Shown piece by piece: positions 10,745 through 45,907 of a stretch of DNA of 64,000 bases. This DNA comes from Eledone cirrhosa. Taxonomy: Eukaryota. A program made the position numbers and the translations under genes. How positions within the stretch are numbered: the stretch's first letter is position 1; every line of letters starts with the position of its first letter. The notes beneath the pieces are model-generated. The model did not search any database. It had not been told where the DNA came from and worked only from the letters and a program-made list of their open reading frames with translations. Where the stretch lies: positions 25,172,001-25,236,000 of the forward strand of contig OZ024752.1 of the NCBI GenBank assembly GCA_964016885.1, written 5' to 3'.

Positions 10745-13700
10745 TAGCGAAATGGACTGCATACAGGAAAAAGGTGAAATTAGGAGTCAGCGAAACTGGT
10801 CAAAGATAGAACTAACGGTTTTGATCAAGGGGTGGACCATGGCTGATGGGTCTCCACCAAGCAAAAAGATGGCGGAGAATCTGAAAAGCCATGGGTTTCT
10901 GAGGACCCTGACACAGATAGAGAGAAAGAGAAAAGAAATTGAGAAGGCGTATGTCCTCATAGCGCCACATATGGCGATGCTAAGCCGTGTCCTCAGGGAG
11001 GAGAAAACCGAAGAGAGGGATGAGGAGAAGGAGAGGGAAAAGGAAAAGGAAAAAGAAAAGAAAAGGAGGAGAGCACAAGCACGGACCTGAAAGAAAATGA
11101 TATACCCTCCGCCACAGGCAGGGAGGGCAGGTCGGGCAACTAACAAGCAAAGGGCAAAGGTGAAAAGCGAAATCACCTTCCGAAGGAGAACCAAGCGCAG
11201 AGGGACCAGTGGACAACTGTTCAAAGGAAGAACAGAAAGCACCGAGACACTGGGAGCAAAAAAACCCAAGTAATGTGCTGGCATGGAGAGACAGGGATGG
11301 GATGCAGATTCGCCCACCCTAGGTCTCAAAGGAACTATGCCCATCCTACTCGCGCAACATGCCCCAGCCAAAGCCGAAATAAGCCGCTCCAGAAGTATGC
11401 TGATGTCGCGCGTGCCGCACCAACAAGGAGAGATACAGATGGCAGCAGACGAGATACAGATGGCAGCAGCAGAGCAGACCATTTTTTTTTAGTGATGGCA
11501 GAGAAGATTGTGGGACAGCTGACCTGGCTGCATCGTCTCCAGAGCCAGGGTCATCCACACCAGCACTCGAGACCACTACAGTTAAGGGACCCAGAGTGGC
11601 CGCCGCTGACACCAGACCAGGTGTCATACCGACAGCCATTACTGACACCCCAAAAGTCACACCAGTGCTGCTGCTGAATGTCAGAGGCCTGGTGAAACTC
11701 AGTAACATGAGTAAAATTTCCTACCTGGCAGACTTAGCCATAAGCAATCAAGCACTATGCATGGCACTAACCGAAACGCACCTGACAAGCAGTATAGCAG
11801 ATGTAGAAATACATATACCGAAATATACTGTATTTCGTTCGGACAGGAAGGAGAGAACTCATGATGGAGTTGCTCTGTATATCCAAGCACTATGCATGGC
11901 ACTAACCGAAACGCACCTGACAAGCAGTATTGCAGATGCAGAAATACATATACCGAAATATACTGTATTTCGTTCGGACAGGAAGGAGAGAACTCATGAT
12001 GGAGTTGCTCTGTATATCCGTGAAGATGTCACACCAATTTTACTGTTGACATATTCAAACTCAGTCTGTGACACACTGATAATACATATGAAGCAACTAC
12101 AGACAGTAATATGTGTCACATATCGGCCGTCCGATGCCCACAGTCATGAGGGTAAATTTGAGGATAGCCTAAGTAGGATAGAAGAGGTCCTTGACAAACT
12201 GGACCAGAGTCTCAACATCCTACTGCTGGGAGACTTCAACCTACCAAAGGTCAAATGGCCTGAGGGCCACCTCCTCCCTGGAATGACGTCAATAGAACAG
12301 AGACAGACGGAATCCCTGCTGGCCCTCACACACAGGCTGTTCAATTCTCTCAGATCATAACATAGTAGAGCTAATGATATGTGGTCCAAGAGAACCAACA
12401 GAGACAAAACCACCAAGAAGCTCCGGACGTTATCCAGCCTTAACTTCTACAAGGCTAACTGGAAAAAGATTAAGAGAGAAATCCGGAAGCAAACATGGAG
12501 TGAAAACACCGCCACACAAGACACTAACACACAATTTCAACACTTCATGACAATGATACACACTATATGCAAAAGGTTTGTCCCGGAGAAAGACGCAAAC
12601 AGACACAAAAATCTTATTCCCAGAGATAGGAAAATCCTTATGAGATGTAGAACTAAACTCTCAAACCAGTTGAATAGTCAACAAAACCAAAACAAGAAGG
12701 AATCCTATTTGAAACGTGCACTACTTGACACCGAGATTGCACTCAAACTTTCCCATGAGAATGAGAGGGCAAACCCTAAGGCCTTGTTTAAATTTGCAAA
12801 AGAAACTGTCTCAGTACACTGCAAGATTGGGCCACTCTTCTATAAGGACGGTTGATTAACCGAAAACCCCCAAGAGATATGTGAAATACTGAACGAACAG
12901 TACAAAAGTGTCTTCACATGTCCACTGAGGCACATGCAAATAACGAAGCCAGAGGAGTTCTTTGATGCCACAACACTACATGAAGAAATGGCAACCATCA
13001 ACCACATAGACATAACGGAGGAGGATGTGGTGTACGCCATTGATGAAATTAGAACAGACTCGGCTGCTGGACCTGATGGATTCCCAGCAGTTCTCTTAAA
13101 AATATGTAAGCGGGCCTTAGCAACTCCACTGAAGATGCTCTTCAGAAGCTCCTTGGCTAGCGGTGTACTACCCAGGGAGCTGAAAGAAAGCACAATATGC
13201 CCTATCCATAAAGGAGGTAGCAGAGCGGAGGCCAAACACTATAGGCCAGTCTCCCTGACGTCGCATATCAGTAAGGTCATGGAGCGAGTCGTCAGAAAGA
13301 AACTAATCGCTTCCCTCGAAGAAAGTGACCGCCTGGCTGGCGCGCGGCATGGCTTCCGCCCAGGAAGGGGCTGCCTTACACGGCTGCTGCATCACTGCGA
13401 CTGGGTCCTGGGACAACTGCTGGACAGCTCACATGTGGACGTGATATATCTTGACTTTGCGAAGGCCTTTGACAAGGTCGACTACGGAATGATATGTCAC
13501 AAACTACACGGACTCGGCATAACTGGAAAAGTAGGTGAGTGGCTGCATGGCTTCCTAAGGGACAGAAGCCAGGCAGTTGCAGCAAATGGGGCCCTCTCGA
13601 AGGTACACCAATAACAAGTGGGGTGCCCCAGGGGACAGTCCTGGGACCACTACTGGTTTTGGTGGCTCTCTCAGACATGCCCTCTATAGTACATACAACA

Positions 13701-23893: not shown

Positions 23894-23981
23894 ATAACTT
23901 TGAATAACTTTGAAATGTTTTGGCCAGTATTGGCCCAGGCCATGTCTAACTTAATAGCACCACCTGGCGAAGTCTTTCAAT

Positions 23982-26900
23982 TCAGGATTTGGGCACCATG
24001 GCCCATTCGAGAAGAGAATTACTGTTTGCGGAGACATATCCGGGTGTGGGTGGTTTGTCCGGGATTACTTGGAGGAATTTGTCCAAAGACTTCTTGAATC
24101 TTGTGTGGTCAGTTTCTGTTTTGACGTGTCCTGGTGTGATGTTGAAGAGAGCAGGGCCGATTGAGGTGAAATAATTGTGCCGTATTGTTGTTATGAGTTG
24201 CGATTTAGATTTTTGAATGGGACGGATAGCACGGGGCCCAAGCCTTGGGTGTATCTTGAAGGCGATGCCAACATCATTTGGGCAGTGATGATGGAACATT
24301 TTCCACATCATGCAGATAATATAACGCTCACGGCGACGTTGGAGTGAGTAAAGTTTCAGGTTTTCCAATCGACCCCAGTAGTCAAGGTCTGACATGCCAT
24401 CTATCTTTTTCGTGATTGCCCTTTGAGGAGCTTCAAGTTTCATGATACTTTGTTTCGTGTGGGGAGACCACAGTGGACAACAGTATTCAAGGTGTGGTCG
24501 GGCGAAAGTAGAGAAGAGAAGGATAATGGTGCGGGAATCTCTCGACTGGAAGGTTCTGAGGATCCAGGAACACATTCTGCGGGCCATGTCAACTTTGCTG
24601 CTTATATGCGTGGTCCAGCTTATGTTGCTGTCCACGGTTACTCCCAAGTCTCTGATGTTGTTAGATGCCACGAGAGTTTCCCCGGAGGGAAGGGAGTACG
24701 GGAGTTTCAGAGCATCCTCTTTTCCAAAGTGGATCAGTTCGAATTTGTCTTCGTTCAGTAACATGTTGTTCTTTTCTGCCCATTGGGTAACAGCCAGTAG
24801 GTCTGACTGAAGGCTTATCCGGTCATCCACGCCATTGATGACCTTTTGGAGCTTGGAATCATCAGCGAAAATTTTAATGTTGCTGTGTTTTAATGTTGCT
24901 GTGTTTGATGATGTCAGTGATGTCATTAATATAGATGATGAAGAGAAGTGGGCCCAACACAGTGCCTTGTGGGACTCCACTACTGACTTTGGCTGGGCTT
25001 GATTTGACTCCCTCAACTACAACATGTTGGGTTCTGTTTGACAGGAAGCTCTTGATCCACTGCAGCAGCTTTCCAGTGACACCAATATTGGACAGCTTTC
25101 TCAGTAGAATGTTATGATCAACCCTGTCAAAGGCCTTGCTGAAATCAAGGTAGATAACATCAGTGTTGGAACCCTCTCCCAAGGCTCTCAAAATGTCATC
25201 AAAGTGATGCAGTAGTTGCGTCAGGCAATCCCTTCCATTACGGAATCCATGCTGGTTGGAGTTCAGCATATTGTTACTCTCAAGGAAGTGGGTCATTCGC
25301 GATCTCACCACTCGCTCAAATACCTTAATGATATGAGAGGTGAGTGAGATTGGACGGTAATTCACGGCAAGGGATTTGTTTCCCTTTTTGAAAACTGGGA
25401 CAACAGACTGGGATAGAAGGTTTTCTGGCACATATCCAGCATCCAGTGAGTTCCGCCACAGATTGGCAAGAGGAGAAGCAAGTTGGTGTTGACACGCCTT
25501 CAAGACACAAGCAGGGAACCTATCGGGACCTACTGCTGAATTATGTTTGATTTCCTTTATTGCCGCCAAGACATCAGGGGCGCCAAACGTTATGTCCGAT
25601 AAGGTGTAATGGGGAGTAACATCGCCGATACAGCCCAGATCGGCCATATCAGGATTGCTGAAAACAGAGCAGTATTGTTTCTGCAGTATCTCACCCATGG
25701 TTTTAGCATTGTCTTGAAGAGTGCCATTTTCATCAATTAGAGGGCCAACAGTAGAGCCAGTGATTTTGTGTTTTTTTGCAAATGAAAAGAACACTTTGGG
25801 ATTGAGTTTGATCTTCTCAATGGCCCAGGCCTCTTCAGCTCTTCTCTGATTGTTGATGAGGGACATTATGTTGTTTTGGAGGTTATGTTTTTTAATCTCT
25901 AGTGATGAAATGGCAGTCAAGTTGATGTGTTGCTGCTGACAGTATTTCAGCTTGTTGATTTTTTTGTTCGTTCTCTTAATTTTTCTGATGAGTGTTTTTC
26001 TATTTCTAGGGATTCTGCTCTTAGATTTGTTTATAGTTCTTAATGGGGTGTGTTTAGCACATATGTTTGTAACAGTGTCCACAAAAGTCTGCCAGGACTT
26101 TTTGATGTTAGTGGGTGTATGAGTGTGCGTGAAGGACCAGTCGACATGTGCAAGATCATGACTGATCGCTTCCCAGTTTGCATTGTGGAAATCCATAGCG
26201 TCAAACGGATGGACAGGAGAAATGACATTGGGTTTGTATATTGGACGGTGGAATCTCAGATCACAGAGAACCATGTCATGATCAGAGAGTAGAGTTTTCT
26301 CCACTGCAATATTGTGGATATTGTCAGTGTGATTGCTGAAAATTAAGTCTAGGACGTTTTTGTGGCACCTCGTTGGTTCGAGCACTAGTTGGGATAGGAA
26401 GAAATCATCCATGAAGTCAAGAAGCGATTCCACAGCTTCCCTGTCAGAGGTTGAGGCAGAAGAACCTGGTGGCAGGGTGTTTGTGGACCAGTCAACTCCG
26501 GGGAGGTTGAAGTCCCCCATCATTAAGATGTTGTCAGGGTGACACTCTTGGATGAAACACTTTATGCTGTTGAGGCATTCCTTGAAGCATGGTACAGGCG
26601 TTTGGGGTGGCCTATAGAGCCCAACTACTAATAGGTTGTTGGTTTGACTGAATACAGTGACTGCCTCACAGTATCCATTAGTGAATATGTTCATAGCCTC
26701 TGTTGAGAAAGAATTATGGACATAAATGGCAGTTCCGCCCTTTCTTCTGCCAGCGCGATCAGCACGGATGGCTTTGAAATTTTTCACTTTCACCTCGGCT
26801 TCCAAGTGGAGGTTACTGAGATGGGTTTCAGTGAGGACGAAGAAAGGGATGTGGTTTGGATGGACATCAATCCAGTCCTCCAGGAATTTGATCTTCCATT

Positions 26901-27111
26901 TTTGAGTATTGGTGGAAGGGCTGATGCCTTGGGCGTTAAGCAAAAATGTAGAGGCGAGAGTGGATGGTTTTAATTGTTTTGGTGTGTTGTTAATTTGTTT
27001 GTTTGTTAATGGCAGCAATGGGAGTTTGTGCAGTGGGGTGATAGTGGAGGGTGGTGCTGGGTGATAGCTCGAATGTTTTTTTCCAGTTCTTTTGCCAGAT
27101 TCATTATGGCT
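23982..27111 (-). pseudogene. LINE family B ORF2 (APE endonuclease + RT), single frameshift
   Basis: [45 protein letters not shown]; a 16-bp tandem duplication at ~24874-24905 splits ORFs 24874..27018 and 23982..25016. Confidence 0.93.
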
Positions 27112-28163
27112 AAAAAAGAGGAAGAAGTTTCCTGTTTAGAAGACTGTTGGTGACTGTGGTAGTGGTTATTTTTATGTAGGTTATGGTTTTTGTTTTTGCT
27201 TTTATTTTTAATTTTATTTTCATTTATCCGACGGGTCCCCGGGAGATGGGTAAAGGGACAATCCCGGTCTAAACACAATCTGTCTCGCAGGGAAAAACGG
27301 CAGATTTGTGGATTCCTTGTTTGAGTTATTGGTGGTTGTGTTGGTGTTAAATTAGAGTATGTATTATGGTGGTGGCTGTTTGTGGGGATAGATCGTTTTG
27401 TCCTAGGTAAATGGGTGAATTTGCAGCCACTATCCGTACATATTCTATAGCGTAGAGAGTAGCGGCAAATGATGGGGTTTCGAGTGGGTGGGTATGTGGG
27501 TGTGGGTGTTGTGAGAGGTGTAGATGATGGTTTGGGTAGGATTTGATGACCTTTGTGGACTGTGGGAGGGAGAGTTCTTGTTCTGGTATTAGAAGGTAAA
27601 TTCCTTGACATAGCAGTAGACAAAAATGTTGTAGTAGTAGTAGTAGTAGTAGGCAGAGATGTTGGCAGTGGTGATGATTGGACTGCTGGGCCAGAGAAAG
27701 GATGTGGCGTTTCATGCTGTGAGACAGAGGCTACTGGGGGGTCAATAGTTTCATTTAGTAGATCGGCCATTGTTGATGAATCAAGGAGTGGTTCACACTG
27801 TTGTTGTCGTTGTTGTTGTTGTTGTTGCTGTTGTTGTTGTTGTAGCTGTTGTTGTTGTTGTTGTTGTTGCTGTTGTAGCTGCTGTTGTTGTTGTTGCTGC
27901 TGCTGGACAGCATTCAAAGAGAAAACACACCGTAGTTTATCCAAATGTTTATTGATTAATTTAAAAGCAATTTCGATTTGCTTTAATTTATTTTGAATCT
28001 GTTGTTCAGATCGAGTTTTCAAAAATTGAACTGTACGTTTAGCAATGTCGTTCAGAGATGAAGCATCTATATTTTCTGTTTGGGAAAGGCAATGCCATGT
28101 GTTTATTAGAATGTCGATTTCATTATCAGACCAGTTCTGTTTGGATTTTTGCTGGTTAGCCAT
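27006..28163 (-). CDS. LINE family B ORF1p (385 aa): N-terminal Myb/SANT-like domain, polyQ, two CCCH zinc fingers
   Basis: NWSDNEIDILINTW...RSEQQIQNKLKQI; CRYSLRYRICTDSGCKFTH and CRFSLRDRLCLDRDCPFTH. Confidence 0.85.
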   Translation of the reverse strand: MANQQKSKQNWSDNEIDILINTWHCLSQTENIDASSLNDIAKRTVQFLKTRSEQQIQNKLKQIEIAFKLINKHLDKLRCVFSLNAVQQQQQQQQQLQQQQQQQQQQLQQQQQQQQQQQRQQQCEPLLDSSTMADLLNETIDPPVASVSQHETPHPFSGPAVQSSPLPTSLPTTTTTTTTFLSTAMSRNLPSNTRTRTLPPTVHKGHQILPKPSSTPLTTPTPTYPPTRNPIICRYSLRYRICTDSGCKFTHLPRTKRSIPTNSHHHNTYSNLTPTQPPITQTRNPQICRFSLRDRLCLDRDCPFTHLPGTRRINENKIKNKSKNKNHNLHKNNHYHSHQQSSKQETSSSFLAIMNLAKELEKNIRAITQHHPPLSPHCTNSHCCH

Positions 28164-28884
28164 TCTAGTTTTGAGTGTGTGTGTGTTTTAGTTAAGTATT
28201 TCAATATATATATATTTTTTTTTTTTTTTAAATTTATTTTTGATTTATTTTTGTTTTTTGTTTTTCTTGTGTGTGAGTGAGAAGCGTATATATATAAATA
28301 TGAGTATATATATATATATATATGTATATTCTGGTTATTTGAAATTAATTAAGTTAATGAAAAGACGAAAGTATATAATAATAATTTGTAGTTAAAGGAA
28401 AATGTACTCACAAGTTCGTGTGTGTGTGTTTTAGTTAAGTATTTCAATATATATATATTTTTTTTTTAATTTATTTTTGATTTATTTTTGTTTTTTGTTT
28501 TTCTTGTGTGTGAGTGAGAAGCGTATATATATAAATATGAGTATATATATATATATGTATATTCTGGTTATTTGAAATTAATTAAGTTAATGAAAAGACG
28601 AAAGTATATAATAATAATTTGTAGTTAAAGGAAAATGTACTCACAAGTTCGAAAACACGTGGTTTCAAATATATAATAATATAGATGTATGAAAAATGTA
28701 TTAACCGGTCAATTTTCAAATATATAATAATATAGATGTATGAAAATGTATTAACCGGTCAATTTTTGTTTGTTTGGTTTTGTCTTGTGGTTTTGTTTTG
28801 TGGCTGTGTGACTTGCTGCTTACTCGGGGAGAGAAGTAAAAACACGTCCTTATACTTCAACTGCTCAACTGCCATGTATATATG

Positions 28885-33127: not shown

Positions 33128-35155
33128 TAGAACAAAAGATGGTTAAAAGAGTTCCATGTATTTTATTATGCGCATTTCAAAACAAATATCATCATGCAAT
33201 GACATTTGTGTTTTCATCAGATAAAATAGGAAGACATGATATGAAGGTTAAAGAAATTTGTGAATAGTGCAGTTTTAAATAAACATGAAAAGTAGTTTTA
33301 AATTGATGTGTGACATTCTGAAAACAATTTTGAGGGTGGGTGGGTGGAAAGGATGAAAAAGAGGAGGAGATGAGAGTAAAAAGTGGAGGGAGAGGAGTAT
33401 AATGAGGAAGGATGAGATAGGAGGAGAGATGGATGATAGAGAGAGAGAGAGATATCTTTTATAACTGAGAAAAATATATTGTTTTACATAAAGAGGTTGA
33501 AAAACCGTTGGAAGATAATATATAAATTAAAAGAATTTGAAAATTAACGAAGAGAAAAATAATGTAAAGTTAAGGTTTGTATATTGAAGGGTTTAATAAT
33601 ATGTGCGATGAAAAGAAATTGTTAATATGTATTAAGAATAATATTTAAGGGTTTAATAATATGTGCGATGGAAAGAAAATGTTGATATGTATTATTAAAC
33701 AAATATAGCAATAGTAATGTAAATAAGGATATATTGTGAAAGAAGTAGAAAATAGGTTGAATAAGTTACATGAGCATGAAAGGGAGAAAAAATAATGAAA
33801 AATGTTTATGTTTACGAAGGATTTTTTCAAGGTGATATAAAGTAAGAATATATTGTACTGTGTAATAATTGTTTCTATGTTAGGCACAATGAGAAAAGGT
33901 ACAGATTAGGGGTTAGAAATTAAAAGAAAAAGAAAAGAAAAGGAAAAGGAAGAAAGGGAAGTGATAAATAGGAGTGATATAGAATGAGTAACTAGTATTT
34001 TATAATGTATAATAAATAACTTTGAAATAAGGTAGAAAGATGGGTATATTTTTAAAGAAGTATATATATATATATATGTGCCTTTGAGAAAAGGATTTTA
34101 AATTGATAAAGTATTAGATATTAGCTGTATACTTTATGGAATGTTCTGTGGAATTTATGCAAGCAGAGAGAAAACAAGTCAGTGCGTCTATTTATTATAG
34201 AATCTAAATTAGATATAATGGTAAATTTTTCATTTAAACAGAGATTGCAAGTATTGGATAGAGAACTGTTCAAGTATGTAGAAGCAGAAGAAACCTTTTT
34301 CCAAGAGATGTTATATTTAATATTTTTGTCTTTCAAGGACCATATGAGTTCTGAGAGTGCCGTGTTGGTTCTTTTAAGTTGGTATTTAAAAGACGAATGA
34401 TGATTATAAAGACGAGCTTTAAAGGAGGTGGAAGTGGAGCCAAAATAGGTGAAGGAATTGGTGTCAGTTATAACTTTATATTCGTAGATTAAGTTCTTTT
34501 CAAGACAATGGTTGTTGAGAGGACATTTATTTTTAACAGGGCAATTGCAATTGCGATTAGAGAAATTAGCAGAGTTATTAACGAGTGACCTAGTGTTATC
34601 TATAGAAGGAATTGGATTGGAGAAGTTATTTACGATAGGAATAATAGTTTCTTGATTAAGAACATTTAGCGAAGTTGTGTTTGACGTTGTATTTGGGTTT
34701 GCAGAAATTAGCCTAGAGTTAACAATGACGTCGGGAGTACTATTACTATTATTATGATATTCAGTGTTGGAAGGAAGAGATTTAGTATTTAGTATTTTAT
34801 TGTTGTGTTTAGAGATAATGTTGGAAATGTTGGAGGAGGTCGGATAGGAAAATTTTATAGTGTGTTTGTTAAATATTTTACTATAGATATGTGAGGGAGG
34901 AAAGCATTTATTTAAGGCACTAAAGAATAATTTAGGAATATTATTATTAATAGAGATGGAGAAAGGAGCATTATACCAGATTATGTTTTTGTATCTAGGT
35001 CTTTTATTAAAGTTATTGGAATGATCATGATTAATTATTCTACTGTAACATCTTCTAGAATTAGTTTCTTTACTATATTTGATTTTATCAGGATAGCCGG
35101 CTTTAGAAAGCGCGATAGCCGGCTTTAGAATAACGCTAATAACGGTAATTTATAC
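33128..35155 (-). mobile_element. Penelope-like element (Hydra-type), 5'-truncated: GIY-YIG endonuclease + pLTR
   Basis: Minus strand reads IIWYNAPFS...CNCPVKNKCPLNNHCLEKNLIY...YFGSTSTSFKARLYNHHSSF...CNLCLNEK; a hammerhead lies in the 3' UTR. Clade assignment is from recalled motifs. Confidence 0.85.
33159..33228 (-). ncRNA. Type I hammerhead ribozyme in PLE pLTR
   Basis: tattttat CTGATGA [long stem II] GAAA tgcgca T A ataaaata; 8-bp stem I, palindromic stem III. Confidence 0.85.
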
Positions 35156-40210: not shown

Positions 40211-43200
40211 AAGAACAAAAGATGGTTAAAAGAGTTCCATGTATTTTATTATGCGCATTTCAAAAACAAATATCATCATGCAATAATATTTGTGTTTTCA
40301 TCAGATAAAACATGAAGACATGATATGAAGGTTAAAAAACACTTGTGGATAGTTCAGTTTTAAATCAACATATGAGAAGTGGTTTTAGATTGATGTGTGA
40401 TATTGGGAAAAATATTTTATTTAGAGGGGTGGTGGTGGAAAGGATGAAAAAGAGGAGGAGATGAGAGTAAAAAGTGGAGAGGGAGGCGTATAATGAGGAA
40501 GGATGAGATAGGAGGAGAGATGGGTGATAGAGAGAGAGAGATAGCTTTTATAACTGAGAAAGATATATTGTTTTACATAGAGAGGTTGAAAACCGTTGGA
40601 AGATAATGAATAAATTAAAAGAATTTGAAAATTAACGAAGAGAAAAATAATGTAAAGTTAAGGTTTGTATATTGAGGGGTTTGATAATATGTGCGATGAA
40701 AAAAGAAAATGTTACTATGTATTGAGAATAATGTTTAAGGGTTTAATAATATGTGCGATGTTAAGAAGATGTTGATATGTATTATTAAAAGGAACAACAG
40801 GTTATTTAAGTAAGGAAATATTGTGAGATGAATGAGTTAGATGAAAAGGAGAAAAGAATAATGAATTGAGGATGAATAATCTAACGTCAAAAAAATGTAT
40901 ATGTTTACGAAGGATTTTTACAAGGTGATATAGAGTAAGAATGTATTGTATTATGTAATAATTGATTCTATGTTAGGCAAGAGTGAGAAAAGGTACAGAT
41001 TAGGGGTTAGATATTAAAAGAAGAAGAGAAGAATGAGTAACAAGTATTATAGAATGTATAATAACCTTTGAAATAAGGTAGAAAGATGGGTATATTTTTA
41101 AAAGAAGTGTATATATATATATATATATGTGCCTTTGAGAAAAAGATTCTAAATTGATAAAGAATTGAATATTAGATGTATACTTTGTGAAATGTTTTAT
41201 TAAAGTTATTGGAATGATCATGATTAATTATTCTACTGTAATTTCTTCTAGAATTTGTTTCTTTACTATATTTAATTTTATCAGGATAGCCGGCTTTAGA
41301 AAGCGCGTTATTATAGTAATTGGCGTTAGCATCAAATATGTTTTTATTAGAAGATAGGTTAGATATTCTTTTTCCAATATTACTAACTATAGCATTCTTG
41401 ATATTAGTAGGATGGTTAGATTTAAAGTTAATATAATTTAGGTTCTCATTGTTTTTATGGTAAGGGTAATATAGGCCAGTGTCAAGATTAAGAGATACAT
41501 CCAAGAAATTAGCTAGTTTGATGCTGTTATCAAATTCAATTTTTAGGTTATGTTGGTTAAAGAGATTACGTATATTGTTCTTAATAATATTAAGGTTAAC
41601 TATGTTGCAATTTAAGATAGTAAATTCCACCGCGAAGTTGAGGAATTTTCCGACTCAAAGAGTTCAAAATAAAGATACCAATTAAATCTGTCAATTGGGA
41701 TGAATCGGATGCTCTCATTGTGATGTCGAAGTTGTTAGAGGTATCGGCTCTGGTCCAATATTCGTTGTTGAACTCTAGGATGGTTTTACGTGCGGTGAGA
41801 ATGATGTGAAGTTCATCTGTGGTGATGTCAGAATATTTAAGTGCGAAAGATAGAGCATTATTGAGAAGTGAAGGCGAAATAGAAGAATAGTAGCTGGCAA
41901 TATCAAATTGAACAAATTTTAGTTTATTTTTATTATTCAATTCGTTGAATCACTTCAGAAGTACTAAACCATAAATTTAGGTTCAAAGAAGAGCAATTAG
42001 AACGAACCTGTAGGATAATTCTATCCAAGATGGCTTTACTAACCAACCACAGATCTGATTTAGAGGAGAGATGGGTGATAGAGAGAGAGATAGCTTTTAT
42101 AACTGAGAAAGATATATTGTTTTACATAGAGAGGTTGAAAACCGTTGGAAGATAATGAATAAATTAAAAGAATTTGAAAATTAACGAAGAGAAAAATAAT
42201 GTAAAGTTAAGGTTTGTATATTGAAGGGTTTAATAATATGTGCGATGAAAAGAAATTGTTAATATGTATTAAGAATAATATTTAAGGGTTTAATAATATG
42301 TGCGATGGAAAGAAAATGTTGATATGTATTATTAAACAAATATAGCAATAGTAATGTAAGTAAGGATATATTGTGAAAGAAGTAGAAAATAGGTTGAATA
42401 AGTTACATGAGCATGAAAGGGAGAAAAAATAATGAATTGAGGATGAATAATCTAACGTCAAAAAAAATGTTTGTTTACGAAGGATTTTTTCAAGGTGATA
42501 TAAAGTAAGAATATATTGTACTGTGTAATAATTGTTTCTATGTTAGGCACAATGAGAAAAGGTACAGATTAGGGGTTAGAAATTAAAAGAAAAAGAAAAG
42601 AAAAGGAAAAGGAAGAAAGGGAAGTGATAAATAGGAGTGATATAGAATGAGTAACTAGTATTTTATAATGTATAATAAATAACTTTGAAATAAGGTAGAA
42701 AGATGGGTATATTTTTAAAGAAGTATATATATATATATATGTGCCTTTGAGAAAAGGATTTTAAATTGATAAAGTATTAGATATTAGCTGTATACTTTAT
42801 GGAATGTTCTGTGGAATTTATGCAAGCAGAGAGAAAACAAGTCAGTGCGTCTATTTATTATAGAATCTAAATTAGATATAATGGTAAATTTTTCATTTAA
42901 ACAGAGATTGCAAGTATTGGATAGAGAACTGTTCAAGTATGTAGAAGCAGAAGAAACCTTTTTCCAAGAGATGTTATATTTAATATTTTTGTCTTTCAAG
43001 GACCATATGAGTTCTGAGAGTGCCGTGTTGGTTCTTTTAAGTTGGTATTTAAAAGACGAATGATGATTATAAAGACGAGCTTTAAAGGAGGTGGAAGTGG
43101 AGCCAAAATAGGTGAAGGAATTGGTGTCAGTTATAACTTTACATTCGTAGATTAAGTTTTTTTCAAGACAATGGTTGTTGAGAGGACATTTATTTTTAAC

Positions 43201-43855
43201 AGGGCAATTGCAATTGCGATTAGAGAAATTAGCAGAGTTATTAACGAGTGACCTAGTGTTATCTATAGAAGGAATTGGATTGGAGAAGTTATTTACGATA
43301 GGAATAATAGTTTCTTGATTTAGAATGGGATTAAGAACATTTAGCGAAGTTGTGTTTGACGTTGTATTTGGGTTTGCAGAAATTAGCCTAGAGTTAACAA
43401 TGACGTCGGGAGTACTATTACTATTATTATGATATTCAGTGTTGGAAGGAAGAGATTTAGTATTTAGTATTTTATTGTTGTGTTTAGAGATAATATTGGA
43501 AATGTTGGAGGAGGTCGGATAGGAAAATTTTATAGTGTGTTTGTTAAATATTTTACTATAGATATGTGAGGGAGGAAAACATTTATTTAAGGCACTAAAG
43601 AATAATTTAGGAATATTATTATTAATAGAGATGGAGAAAGGAGCATTATACCAGATTATGTTTTTGTATCTAGGTCTTTTATTAAAGTTATTGGAATGAT
43701 CATGATTAATTATTCTACTGTAAGATCTTCTAGAATTAGTTTCTTTACTATATTTGATTTTATCAGGATAGCCGACTTTAGAAAGCGCGATAGCCGGCTT
43801 TAGAAAGCGCGATAGCCGGCTTTAGAATAACGCTAATAACGCTAATTTATACTTA
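40211..43855 (-). mobile_element. Hydra-type PLE fragments in partial tandem (RT remnants 41172-42060; GIY-YIG copy 42784-43680)
   Basis: FDIASYYSSI, FDITMRASDSSQLTDLIG, NFLDVSLNL, SNHP; 42061-43855 is nearly identical to 33420-35155. Confidence 0.88.
40238..40314 (-). ncRNA. Type I hammerhead ribozyme in PLE pLTR (second copy)
   Basis: ttttat CTGATGA...GAAA tgcgca T A ataaaa, as at 33159. Confidence 0.83.
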
Positions 43856-43955: not shown

Positions 43956-44665
43956 GGCTTGGCACTTGTTGGTATAAGACGTGAATTGTCGTCTCTCCAG
44001 ATTTGAAATTTTAATATTTTAAATCGACAGTAATCGGATTTATGTATGGTTTTAATTCTTCAGAGGACAAGGAAAACATACAAAAAAAGATAAGTTTTTG
44101 TGCTTTGACGCAATTATTTTGAAGTATATGTTACATATATTACCGTTTTGAACATGTTTATTTTCACTGTATGATTCCTTGATAGGAGACAACACACACA
44201 CGTGCTTTCTATTTCTCTTGCCTACCATACGGAGCATTTTGGTTTAACTTAAGCAGATCTTGTATTAATTTTGATTTTTCTGAGTAACATAATTTAATTT
44301 GATATAATCTTGTTTGATTTGGTATAATCTTATCTGCATTTGACCCGATTTCGTTATTTCTTGTATGATATGCTGATATTACAATAACTTCGTATATTTG
44401 TAAACAAACATTTACATTCATCTTATATATGCAACTTACATCGTGTTTCTATATCTCTATGTTTCCGGTTTTTCCATTCATTAATTTAAATTTAAAAATT
44501 TATTTTTATATTTATGAACTGCTGTTGCTCACGCTGTCTCTATCTCTCTCCTTCCTTCCTCTCTCTCTCTCTCTCTCCCTCTCTCTCTCTCTCGATCAAC
44601 GAGCTCTCTTTCTCCCTCTCTCTCGATCAACGAGCTCTCTTTCTCCCTCTCTCTAGATCAACGAG

Positions 44666-44758
<93 letters not shown>

Positions 44759-44960
44759 CTCTCCCTCTGACATTCCCCCCACTCTTCCCGCTATCTCTCT
44801 CGCTCCCCTCTTCTGTCTCCCCCTTTTCTTTTCTTTTCTTCTGTTTCTCTTTCTTCTTTTTCTCGCTGGAGTTATATCTCTATCTCCCTCCCTCACTCTG
44901 TCCCTCTCTAACCTCTACCCTACACTTCCCACTGTCTCTCTTTCTCCCCTCCACAGCGAA

Positions 44961-45907
44961 ATGGACTGCATGCAGGAAAAATGTGAAATCAGGAGTCAAC
45001 GAAACTGGTCTAAGATGGAACTAGCGGTTTTGATCAAGGGGTGGACCATGGCTGATGGGTCTCCACCAAGCAAAAAGATGGCGGAGAACCTGAAGAGCCA
45101 TGGGTTTCTGAGGACCCTGGCACAGATAGAGAGAAAGAGAAAAGAAATTGAGAAGGCGTATGTCCTCATAGCGCCTCATATGGCGATGCTAAGCCGTGTC
45201 CTCAGGGAGGAGAAAACCGAAGGGAGGGATGAGGAGAAGGAGAGGGAAAAGGAAGAGGAAAAAGAAAAAGAAAAGGAGGAGAGCACAAGCACGGACCTGA
45301 AAGAAAATGATATACCCTCCGCCACAGGCAGGGAGGGCAGGCCGGGCAACCAACAAGCTAAGGGCAAAGGTGAAAAGCGAAATCACCTTCCGAAGGAGAA
45401 CCAAGCGCAGAGGGACCAGTGGACAACTGTTCAAAGAAAGAACAGAAAGCACCGAGACACTGGGAGCAAAAAACCCCAAGTAATGTGCGAGTTTTTCAAG
45501 AACGGACATGCTGGCATGGAGAGACAGGGATGGGATGCAGATTCGCCCACCCTAGGTCTCAAACGAACTATGCCTATCATACTCGCGCAACATGCCCCAG
45601 CCAAAGCCGAAATAAGCCGCTCCAGAAGTATGCTGATGTCGCGCGTGCTGCACCAACAAGGAGAAGGCACGCACATGCCGACGAGATACAGATGGCAGCA
45701 GCAGATCAGAAACATTTTTTAGTGATGGCAGAGAAGATTGTGGGACAGCTGACCTGGCTGCATCGTCTCCAGAGCCAGGGTCATCCACACCAGCACTCGA
45801 GACCACCGCAGTTAAGGGACCCAGAGTGGCCGCCGCTGACACCAGACCAGGTGTCATACCGACAGCCATTACTGACACCCCAAAAGTCACACCAGTGCTG
45901 CTGCTGA
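44961..45907 (+). pseudogene. LINE family A ORF1 (Myb/SANT-like domain + charged coil + CCCH finger), 1-nt frameshift at ~45508
   Basis: RNWSKMELAVLIKGW...GFLRTLAQIERKRKEI; finger reconstructed from copy 2 as CKFFKNGRCWHGETGMGCRFAH. Confidence 0.8.

Follow-up and report, generated by a model that had tools for sequence, protein, structure and literature searches.

The family B element and its ORF1–ORF2 junction

The window analysed here, a 64-kb stretch of the 3.0 Gb genome of Eledone cirrhosa, carries on its minus strand an apparently full-length copy of a LINE that we call family B (~23895..28875). The copy is flanked by (TA)n runs and its ends are approximate, the 5′ end having been placed by eye from the TA run, without alignment. 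For one LINE family of this genome, near-identical database proteins bear octopus names (92–99% identity), and the closest named relative of the family B ORF2 is from Argonauta, at 49% identity. ORF1 of the copy encodes 385 amino acids (ATG at 28163 to TAA at 27008–27006; 27006..28163, minus strand) and consists, from N- to C-terminus, of a weakly Myb/SANT-like part (PF13837 with E 0.002, under the Pfam cut-off), a poly-Gln stretch, two CCCH-like fingers, a Phe-Leu pair and a tail of 34 residues. The ORF2 frame runs over 753 codons in this copy (24874..27135, minus strand), with Pfam matches above cut-off to an endonuclease (PF14529, PF03372) and a reverse transcriptase (PF00078), and is broken in the reverse transcriptase domain by a 16-base tandem duplication (24875..24906, minus strand). 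The remainder of ORF2, comprising the end of the reverse transcriptase and the C-terminal part, lies in a different frame (23982..25016, minus strand). With an APE endonuclease followed by the reverse transcriptase in ORF2, dispersed copies and scattered 5′ truncations, family B has the features of an APE-type LINE, which we take, from the look of the ORF2 C-terminus, to be a member of the CR1 group.

Several further features of the window should be mentioned. In the 5′ region of the family B copy (28200–28800, minus strand), two tandem duplications of ~55 and ~240 bases can be recognized by eye. The ends and 5′ truncation points of family B copies mostly adjoin (TA)n microsatellites (23895 and 28875 in the window; loci L061–L090), which suggests a target preference of the family for TA repeats. 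An LSU rRNA gene with long expansions (90–5203, plus strand) was the only match in an Rfam scan of the window and is followed by GC-rich tandem repeats of ~710 bases (7944–10800) resembling an intergenic spacer. The open frames 34121–35149, 41172–41654, 42784–43821 (minus strand) and 57702–58973 (plus strand) are, judging by their look, presumably Penelope-type; Pfam gave a weak reverse transcriptase match for 57702–58973 and no match for 42784–43821.

At the junction of the two family B frames, the ORF1 codons TCT TTT TTA hold the heptamer U UUU UUA in X XXY YYZ phase (27111..27117, minus strand), followed by G. The −1 frame, which is the frame of ORF2, is closed by a TAA six codons 5′ of the heptamer (27136..27138, minus strand) and from there on stays open into the endonuclease. 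Between the heptamer and the endonuclease lies a 58-codon linker in the ORF2 frame (26944..27117, minus strand), which overlaps the ORF1 tail, contains no AUG and forms no stable fold. The first AUG of the ORF2 frame (26692..26694, minus strand) is located 141 codons 3′ of the heptamer and 83 codons beyond the first endonuclease motif (26943), hence well within the domain. In all these points the first-pass annotation had described the junction correctly. A second in-phase heptamer leading into the same −1 frame, A AAA AAC, absent from the first-pass annotation, is found 36 bases 3′ of the first (27075..27081, minus strand); it is not conserved, being out of phase in most copies of older subfamilies, where the sequence is mostly G AAA AAC. 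In run X6, the kind of which is unknown, a 40-fold depth peak covers the 3′ part of ORF1 and the heptamer (27068–27323); this peak is in part an A-rich stretch drawing unrelated contigs.

Conservation of the heptamer among copies and lineages

Using a search pattern in which the flanks were fixed and the sequence between them was left free, we found 596 family B junctions in the genome with both flanks intact. The heptamer was present at normal spacing and in phase in 574 of them, one extra base fused the ORFs in frame in 8 (1.3%), one base was missing in 4 and other variants accounted for 10. The master element of family B therefore has two ORFs in −1 overlap, and no in-frame AUG was found upstream in the family. 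Two other accounts were rejected on these counts, a single continuous ORF as the master form in view of the 8 fused junctions in 596, and an artefact of one copy or of the assembly in view of the 574. When 30 loci were chosen by their endonuclease alone, 19 had the normal junction, 1 was fused, 6 did not match the junction pattern (4 truncated below the junction, 2 changed otherwise) and 4 were unparsable. Family B is young, and the best 40 of 1141 candidates for a 551-base junction probe, a biased set of best-scoring matches, were all 100% identical; in older subfamilies, with an endonuclease roughly 60–75% identical, the heptamer was kept in 18 of 20 loci. Among 150 scored endonuclease matches of family B, the commonest open ORF2 frame has 1045 codons. 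A few matches display much longer open frames of 1217–1580 codons; one of these copies, L085, carries the additional base by which the two ORFs become fused. A search for longer, already fused proteins returned none at E 1e-15 among 1045 candidates, a result of little weight.

The same heptamer in ORF1 phase is found on the plus strand of the window (45715..45721) in a LINE of family A (ORF1 44496–45907), the endonuclease of which is 35% identical to that of family B; in the two further copies of family A that the window holds, this site has decayed. All 30 family A loci fetched by a junction probe carry the heptamer in ORF1 phase, and among 15 loci fetched by endonuclease 6 keep it, 3 have point changes and 6 are without a parsable junction. 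In family C, which was found by a distant endonuclease query, the heptamer is present in all six loci with both frames intact over the junction. Scanning metagenome contigs with an endonuclease alignment yielded 72 loci, ten of which have a CCCH-type ORF1 motif (L091, L092, L093, L094, L097, L098, L100, L104, L141 and L103). The first eight of these have T TTT TTA at the equivalent place, L094 being the same element as L093; L141 has the heptamer and is decayed downstream, and L103 is decayed, with a stop just 5′ of the site and A TTT TTA instead.

Families A, B and C together with L091, L092, L093/L094, L097, L098, L100 and L104 constitute 10 intact lineages, which were chosen by endonuclease similarity and the CCCH motif, so that the heptamer played no part in the choice. 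Heptamer, phase and position in ORF1 are alike in all 10 (11 of 12, if the decayed L141 and L103 are counted), at endonuclease identities of 28–51% among the lineages, and the conservation across related LINEs that the first-pass annotation had named as a check was thereby confirmed. In a quick tree of 57 rows, 45 of which were metagenome loci that reached 170 open residues (out of 72), one clade of 24 rows with an SH-aLRT support of 100 comprised families A and B together with the seven heptamer loci that were long enough; L100, L141 and family C were absent from this tree. Five further clade members (L095, L096, L102, L126 and L128) lie on contigs that end before the junction and were excluded from all counts. 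Database ORF1 proteins with a full tail, some of them near-duplicates, have Phe-Leu at the junction in 15 of 16 cases; the remaining one, P0022, has Pro-Leu, which could represent an alternative slippery site if coded C CCU UUA. Most ORF1 proteins of the clade have, as we take it, a PHD-like finger and three CCCH fingers. ORF1 is modular across the clade (L092, L097, L191), with the weak Myb/SANT-like N-terminus instead in families A and B and the Phe-Leu junction common to all. Scans of IMG/VR with the endonuclease and with alignment A1 gave zero relatives, a scan of GTDB gave 4 loci, not one of which offered a CCCH-finger clade junction that could be used, and the best ESM Atlas score for the C-terminal half of ORF1, 0.82 to CCCH clusters, is a lead only.

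The behaviour of the −1 frame is consistent over all 10 lineages. Upstream of the heptamer it is shut 0–26 codons away (0–2 codons in four lineages), and after the heptamer it is open for 55–157 codons per lineage, amounting to 821 linker codons. Since it is shut upstream and open through the entire linker, the −1 frame is apparently read from the heptamer on. The open linker is the central anatomical observation: the ORF2 frame behaves as though its point of entry were the heptamer rather than the endonuclease. Farther upstream, the same frame contains 243 stops in 3034 codons, or one per 12.5, from which the chance of the open linkers is calculated as 10^-29.8, a value that is overstated because the lineages were treated as independent and constraints from the overlapping ORF1 tail were ignored. 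The first-pass annotation had called ORF2 AUG-less, which stands for family B and, including it, 6 of the 10 lineages, where no AUG precedes the endonuclease; it does not extend to the other four (L097, L098, L100 and L104), in which an in-frame AUG occurs upstream of the endonuclease or right at its start.

Downstream structure and rival explanations

The HIV-1 frameshift site has a 3′ stem-loop. For family B, RNA folding 3′ of the heptamer was no better than that of shuffled sequences (z 0.02 and 0.23), and a crude pseudoknot search revealed no convincing candidate, in line with the first-pass annotation, which could make out no clear 3′ stimulator by eye. Folding found none in family A either, and over nine lineages z fell below −2 in 3 of 9 downstream windows versus 2 of 9 upstream controls. 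The stimulator is thus not a conserved 3′ hairpin. Of the features of a canonical −1 site, the phase of the heptamer, the open −1 overlap (all 10 lineages, 6 of them without an AUG of their own) and a conservation beyond the need of the protein are present, and the hairpin or pseudoknot 5–9 bases downstream is absent. Frameshifting on U UUU UUA is proven for HIV-1 and alphaviruses (PMC2569925), and Semliki Forest virus shifts on it without a functional 3′ structure (PMC5009743, PMC2569925). The missing structure therefore weakens the case for frameshifting but does not sink it.

A route to ORF2 by a means other than frameshifting has to be considered in three forms. If a non-AUG codon served as the start of ORF2, reached by internal entry or by termination-reinitiation in the manner of L1 or SART1, the heptamer would have some other role. 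Mammalian precedent exists, since L1 ORF2 is made without need of its AUG (PMC5009743, PMC1965478), the family B linker offers near-cognate codons, with UUG and CUG lying shortly 5′ of the ORF1 stop, and in four lineages the linker contains an AUG. However, the exact heptamer, its phase and a linker that is open from the heptamer on would all remain unexplained. Of the 10 lineages, 9, family B among them, show no SART1-type stop-start coupling; in L100, the exception, an AUG precedes the ORF1 stop by 4 bases. The AUG beside the family A stop belongs to the ORF1 frame. The ORF1 stop, moreover, wanders between −65 and +4 bases relative to the endonuclease and in 4 of 10 lineages lies inside the first endonuclease motif, leaving no room for a downstream restart, and we regard this route as improbable. 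Slightly less probable still is splicing, with TTTTTTAG as a 3′ acceptor and a spliced or trans-spliced RNA in which ORF2 is attached to a leader or to a portion of ORF1. This would account for the open linker as well, for the G next to the heptamer, present in 9 of 10 lineages, and for the residue that follows Phe-Leu, which has a G-initial codon in 15 of 15 ORF1 proteins from databases that hold this pair. The public gene model P0028, from an octopus and misleadingly named, connects ORF1 of family C to the endonuclease of ORF2 near the heptamer, by an intron that apparently ends at the heptamer AG and is probably a predictor's bridging of the frame change. Against an acceptor, L100 has no AG, an upstream pyrimidine tract is missing (27–59% pyrimidine in 22 bases), other AG pairs occur just upstream in 8 of 10 lineages, and at three positions where C would be permitted T is found in 10 of 10 lineages (10^-11.0 from codon usage). 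The next AUG after the AG is in the ORF2 frame in 0 of 10, so that a simple trans-spliced message is ruled out. A genome search for spliced copies, in which the downstream 24 bases are preceded by a non-T at −3 and which is blind to joins with T at that place, gave 2 matches, both point mutants and neither spliced. Five RNA-type sequencing runs contain 0.05 of the words, and in four further runs, contigs whose kind is not stated, none of the 15 joints displayed falls at the heptamer, which counts only weakly. Finally, RNA polymerase could slip on the T6 run and add a base, giving a share of transcripts with a fused ORF. The frame change does fall on a homopolymer and 8 genomic copies have the extra base, but fused transcripts would re-enter the genome as new copies, and the 8 in 596 found there are close to the 4 with a base less; the T run is also exactly six in most lineages and always codon-phased, neither of which polymerase would need. 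We consider polymerase slippage highly improbable.

A coincidence of protein constraints, in which a Phe-Leu helix start is written in these codons owing to AT-rich usage or shared ancestry, would leave ORF2 translation without a route. Phe-Leu does begin a conserved helical segment in ORF1, and the preceding residue is usually Ser, Asp or His, residues that suit a helix cap. The pair dictates, however, only four of the seven heptamer bases. T TTT TTA codes only 1 of 30 other Phe-Leu pairs in nine lineages, TTA makes up 4–29% of the Leu codons in clade elements, and silent sites should have turned over at 28–51% protein identity. With the codon usage of each element, the joint probability of the remaining three bases is 10^-18.6 over the ten lineages taken as independent, which again overstates the case. 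The conservation of the heptamer and the open linker are best read as lying far beyond chance, and the coincidence is close to refuted.

Proposed programmed −1 frameshifting and its relation to known systems

We propose that programmed −1 frameshifting makes an ORF1–ORF2 fusion in family B and in the whole LINE clade, and put the probability of this reading at about 0.85, since splicing and polymerase slippage fit poorly and both non-AUG reinitiation and a linker AUG leave the heptamer unexplained. A gag-pol-like fusion had been suggested in the first-pass annotation, and the 574 of 596 junctions and 10 of 10 lineages argue for it at the level of sequence. Weighing against it are the AUG ahead of or at the endonuclease in four lineages, the A TTT TTA of the decayed L103, the Pro-Leu of P0022, the G after the heptamer, which is equally compatible with a splice acceptor, and the negative folding results. 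Most ribosomes would read ORF1 via Phe-Leu to its own stop, giving the protein of 385 amino acids, while a minority would slip back by one base on U UUU UUA and continue through the 58-codon linker into the endonuclease and the reverse transcriptase. The predicted fusion would have ~1,390 residues, 351 from ORF1 and about 1,037 from ORF2, and would keep the ORF1 zinc fingers without the C-terminal helix of ORF1. Slippage would set a high ratio of ORF1p to ORF2p, and the fusion would supply the enzyme with an RNA-binding module in cis. The ribosomal shift, its frequency and the fusion as a working enzyme are what we infer from the letters of these elements.

How ORF2 of LINEs is translated is a long-standing open question (PMC3894237). 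The available part of a review of LINE protein synthesis names coupling (SART1), reinitiation, internal entry and 2A peptides, and frameshifting is not among its routes (PMC3894237). Within the first 300,000 characters of a large review of frameshifting, no non-LTR elements are named apart from HeT-A gag, TART and L1 (PMC5009743). SART1 with its UAAUG coupling, mammalian L1 with AUG-independent reinitiation and 2A-bearing LINEs share with the CCCH-finger clade the problem of obtaining little ORF2p from a two-ORF RNA (PMC3894237, PMC5009743), but they give a separate ORF2p where we propose a fusion. The first-pass annotation had considered −1 frameshifting typical of LTR elements and viruses, which has to be qualified, as it has already been asserted for LINEs: a review figure legend states that Dictyostelium TRE5-A and TRE3-A, which like family B are APE-type non-LTR elements, require a −1 frameshift for ORF2 (PMC5911963). 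LINE frameshifting is therefore not unheard of. The Dictyostelium elements are, by description, set apart from the clade studied here by a different host group, and the part of PMC5911963 available gives neither a slippery site nor an assay. The accessible text of PMC3159450 does not contain the word 'frameshift', that of PMC5006619 has nothing on a −1 shift in TRE elements, and the accessible parts of PMC9115989, PMC11481361 and PMC1965478 add nothing on a slippery LINE ORF1–ORF2 junction. Drosophila HeT-A is likewise a non-LTR element reported to need a frameshift, but unlike in family B the shift occurs inside gag and there is no ORF2 (PMC5009743). Our literature search, outside of which lay Repbase and Dfam entries, most subscription papers and supplements, found no paper on a slippery site at a LINE ORF1–ORF2 junction. 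What we describe is thus a known mechanism in a class of elements for which, in the literature searched, it was found only asserted, never mapped or tested.

Closer parallels are found among viruses. HIV-1 gag-pol has the same heptamer followed by G and fuses an RNA-binding structural protein to a reverse transcriptase at low frequency (PMC5009743, PMC2569925), as we propose for the LINE clade. In contrast to the LINEs, which are without LTR-type domains in Pfam and without a conserved stem-loop, HIV-1 cleaves its fusion by a protease. In alphavirus 6K/TF, as in the LINE clade, U UUU UUA codes Phe-Leu and is kept beyond what the protein needs, and 3′ structures are varied or absent between lineages (PMC2569925, PMC5009743). 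The alphavirus case, however, concerns an RNA virus with a short transframe product established by mass spectrometry and reporters, whereas that of the LINE clade concerns a nuclear retrotransposon with an enzyme of 1,000 residues known from sequence alone.

A second LINE clade among the 72 metagenome loci, with a support of 99 in the quick tree, has a different ORF1, which we presume to be RRM-like, and a −1 overlap of ORF1 and ORF2 of 214–301 bases. Wherever the homologous motif is present, in 12 of 12 loci, it contains GCA AAA AAC in the phase of ORF1 (L113, L114, L118, L123, L125, L127, L129, L132, L134, L136, L140 and L146); a thirteenth match to the pattern, L115, was rejected as unrelated. 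These loci represent five lineages, four of them without an AUG before the endonuclease. This is likely a separate frameshift clade using A AAA AAC, but it is treated as a lead only, because the codon odds are weaker (about 0.01–0.13 per lineage) and the lineages closer. Other LINE types (L109/L111, L122 and L145), single lineages each, have an in-phase heptamer (G GGA AAC or A AAA AAC) at or near the ORF1 stop. We would give even odds to a broader reading, in which −1 frameshifting is a standing, clade-defining route to ORF2p in at least two groups with unrelated ORF1 and, in family B, operates without a downstream RNA structure, being stimulated by the nascent chain, by unstructured 3′ sequence or by ORF1p.

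If programmed −1 frameshifting is indeed used, ORF2p of the CCCH-finger clade would bear the ORF1 zinc fingers, and the gag-pol strategy would be common to LINEs and retroviruses. Any repeat library or gene model in which ORF2 begins at an internal AUG, or in which an intron spans the site, would then be wrong for this clade. With a conserved site defined to the point and hundreds of near-identical copies, the question can be tested by one synonymous change, and the clade would provide a new set of U UUU UUA sites seemingly without an RNA-structure stimulator.
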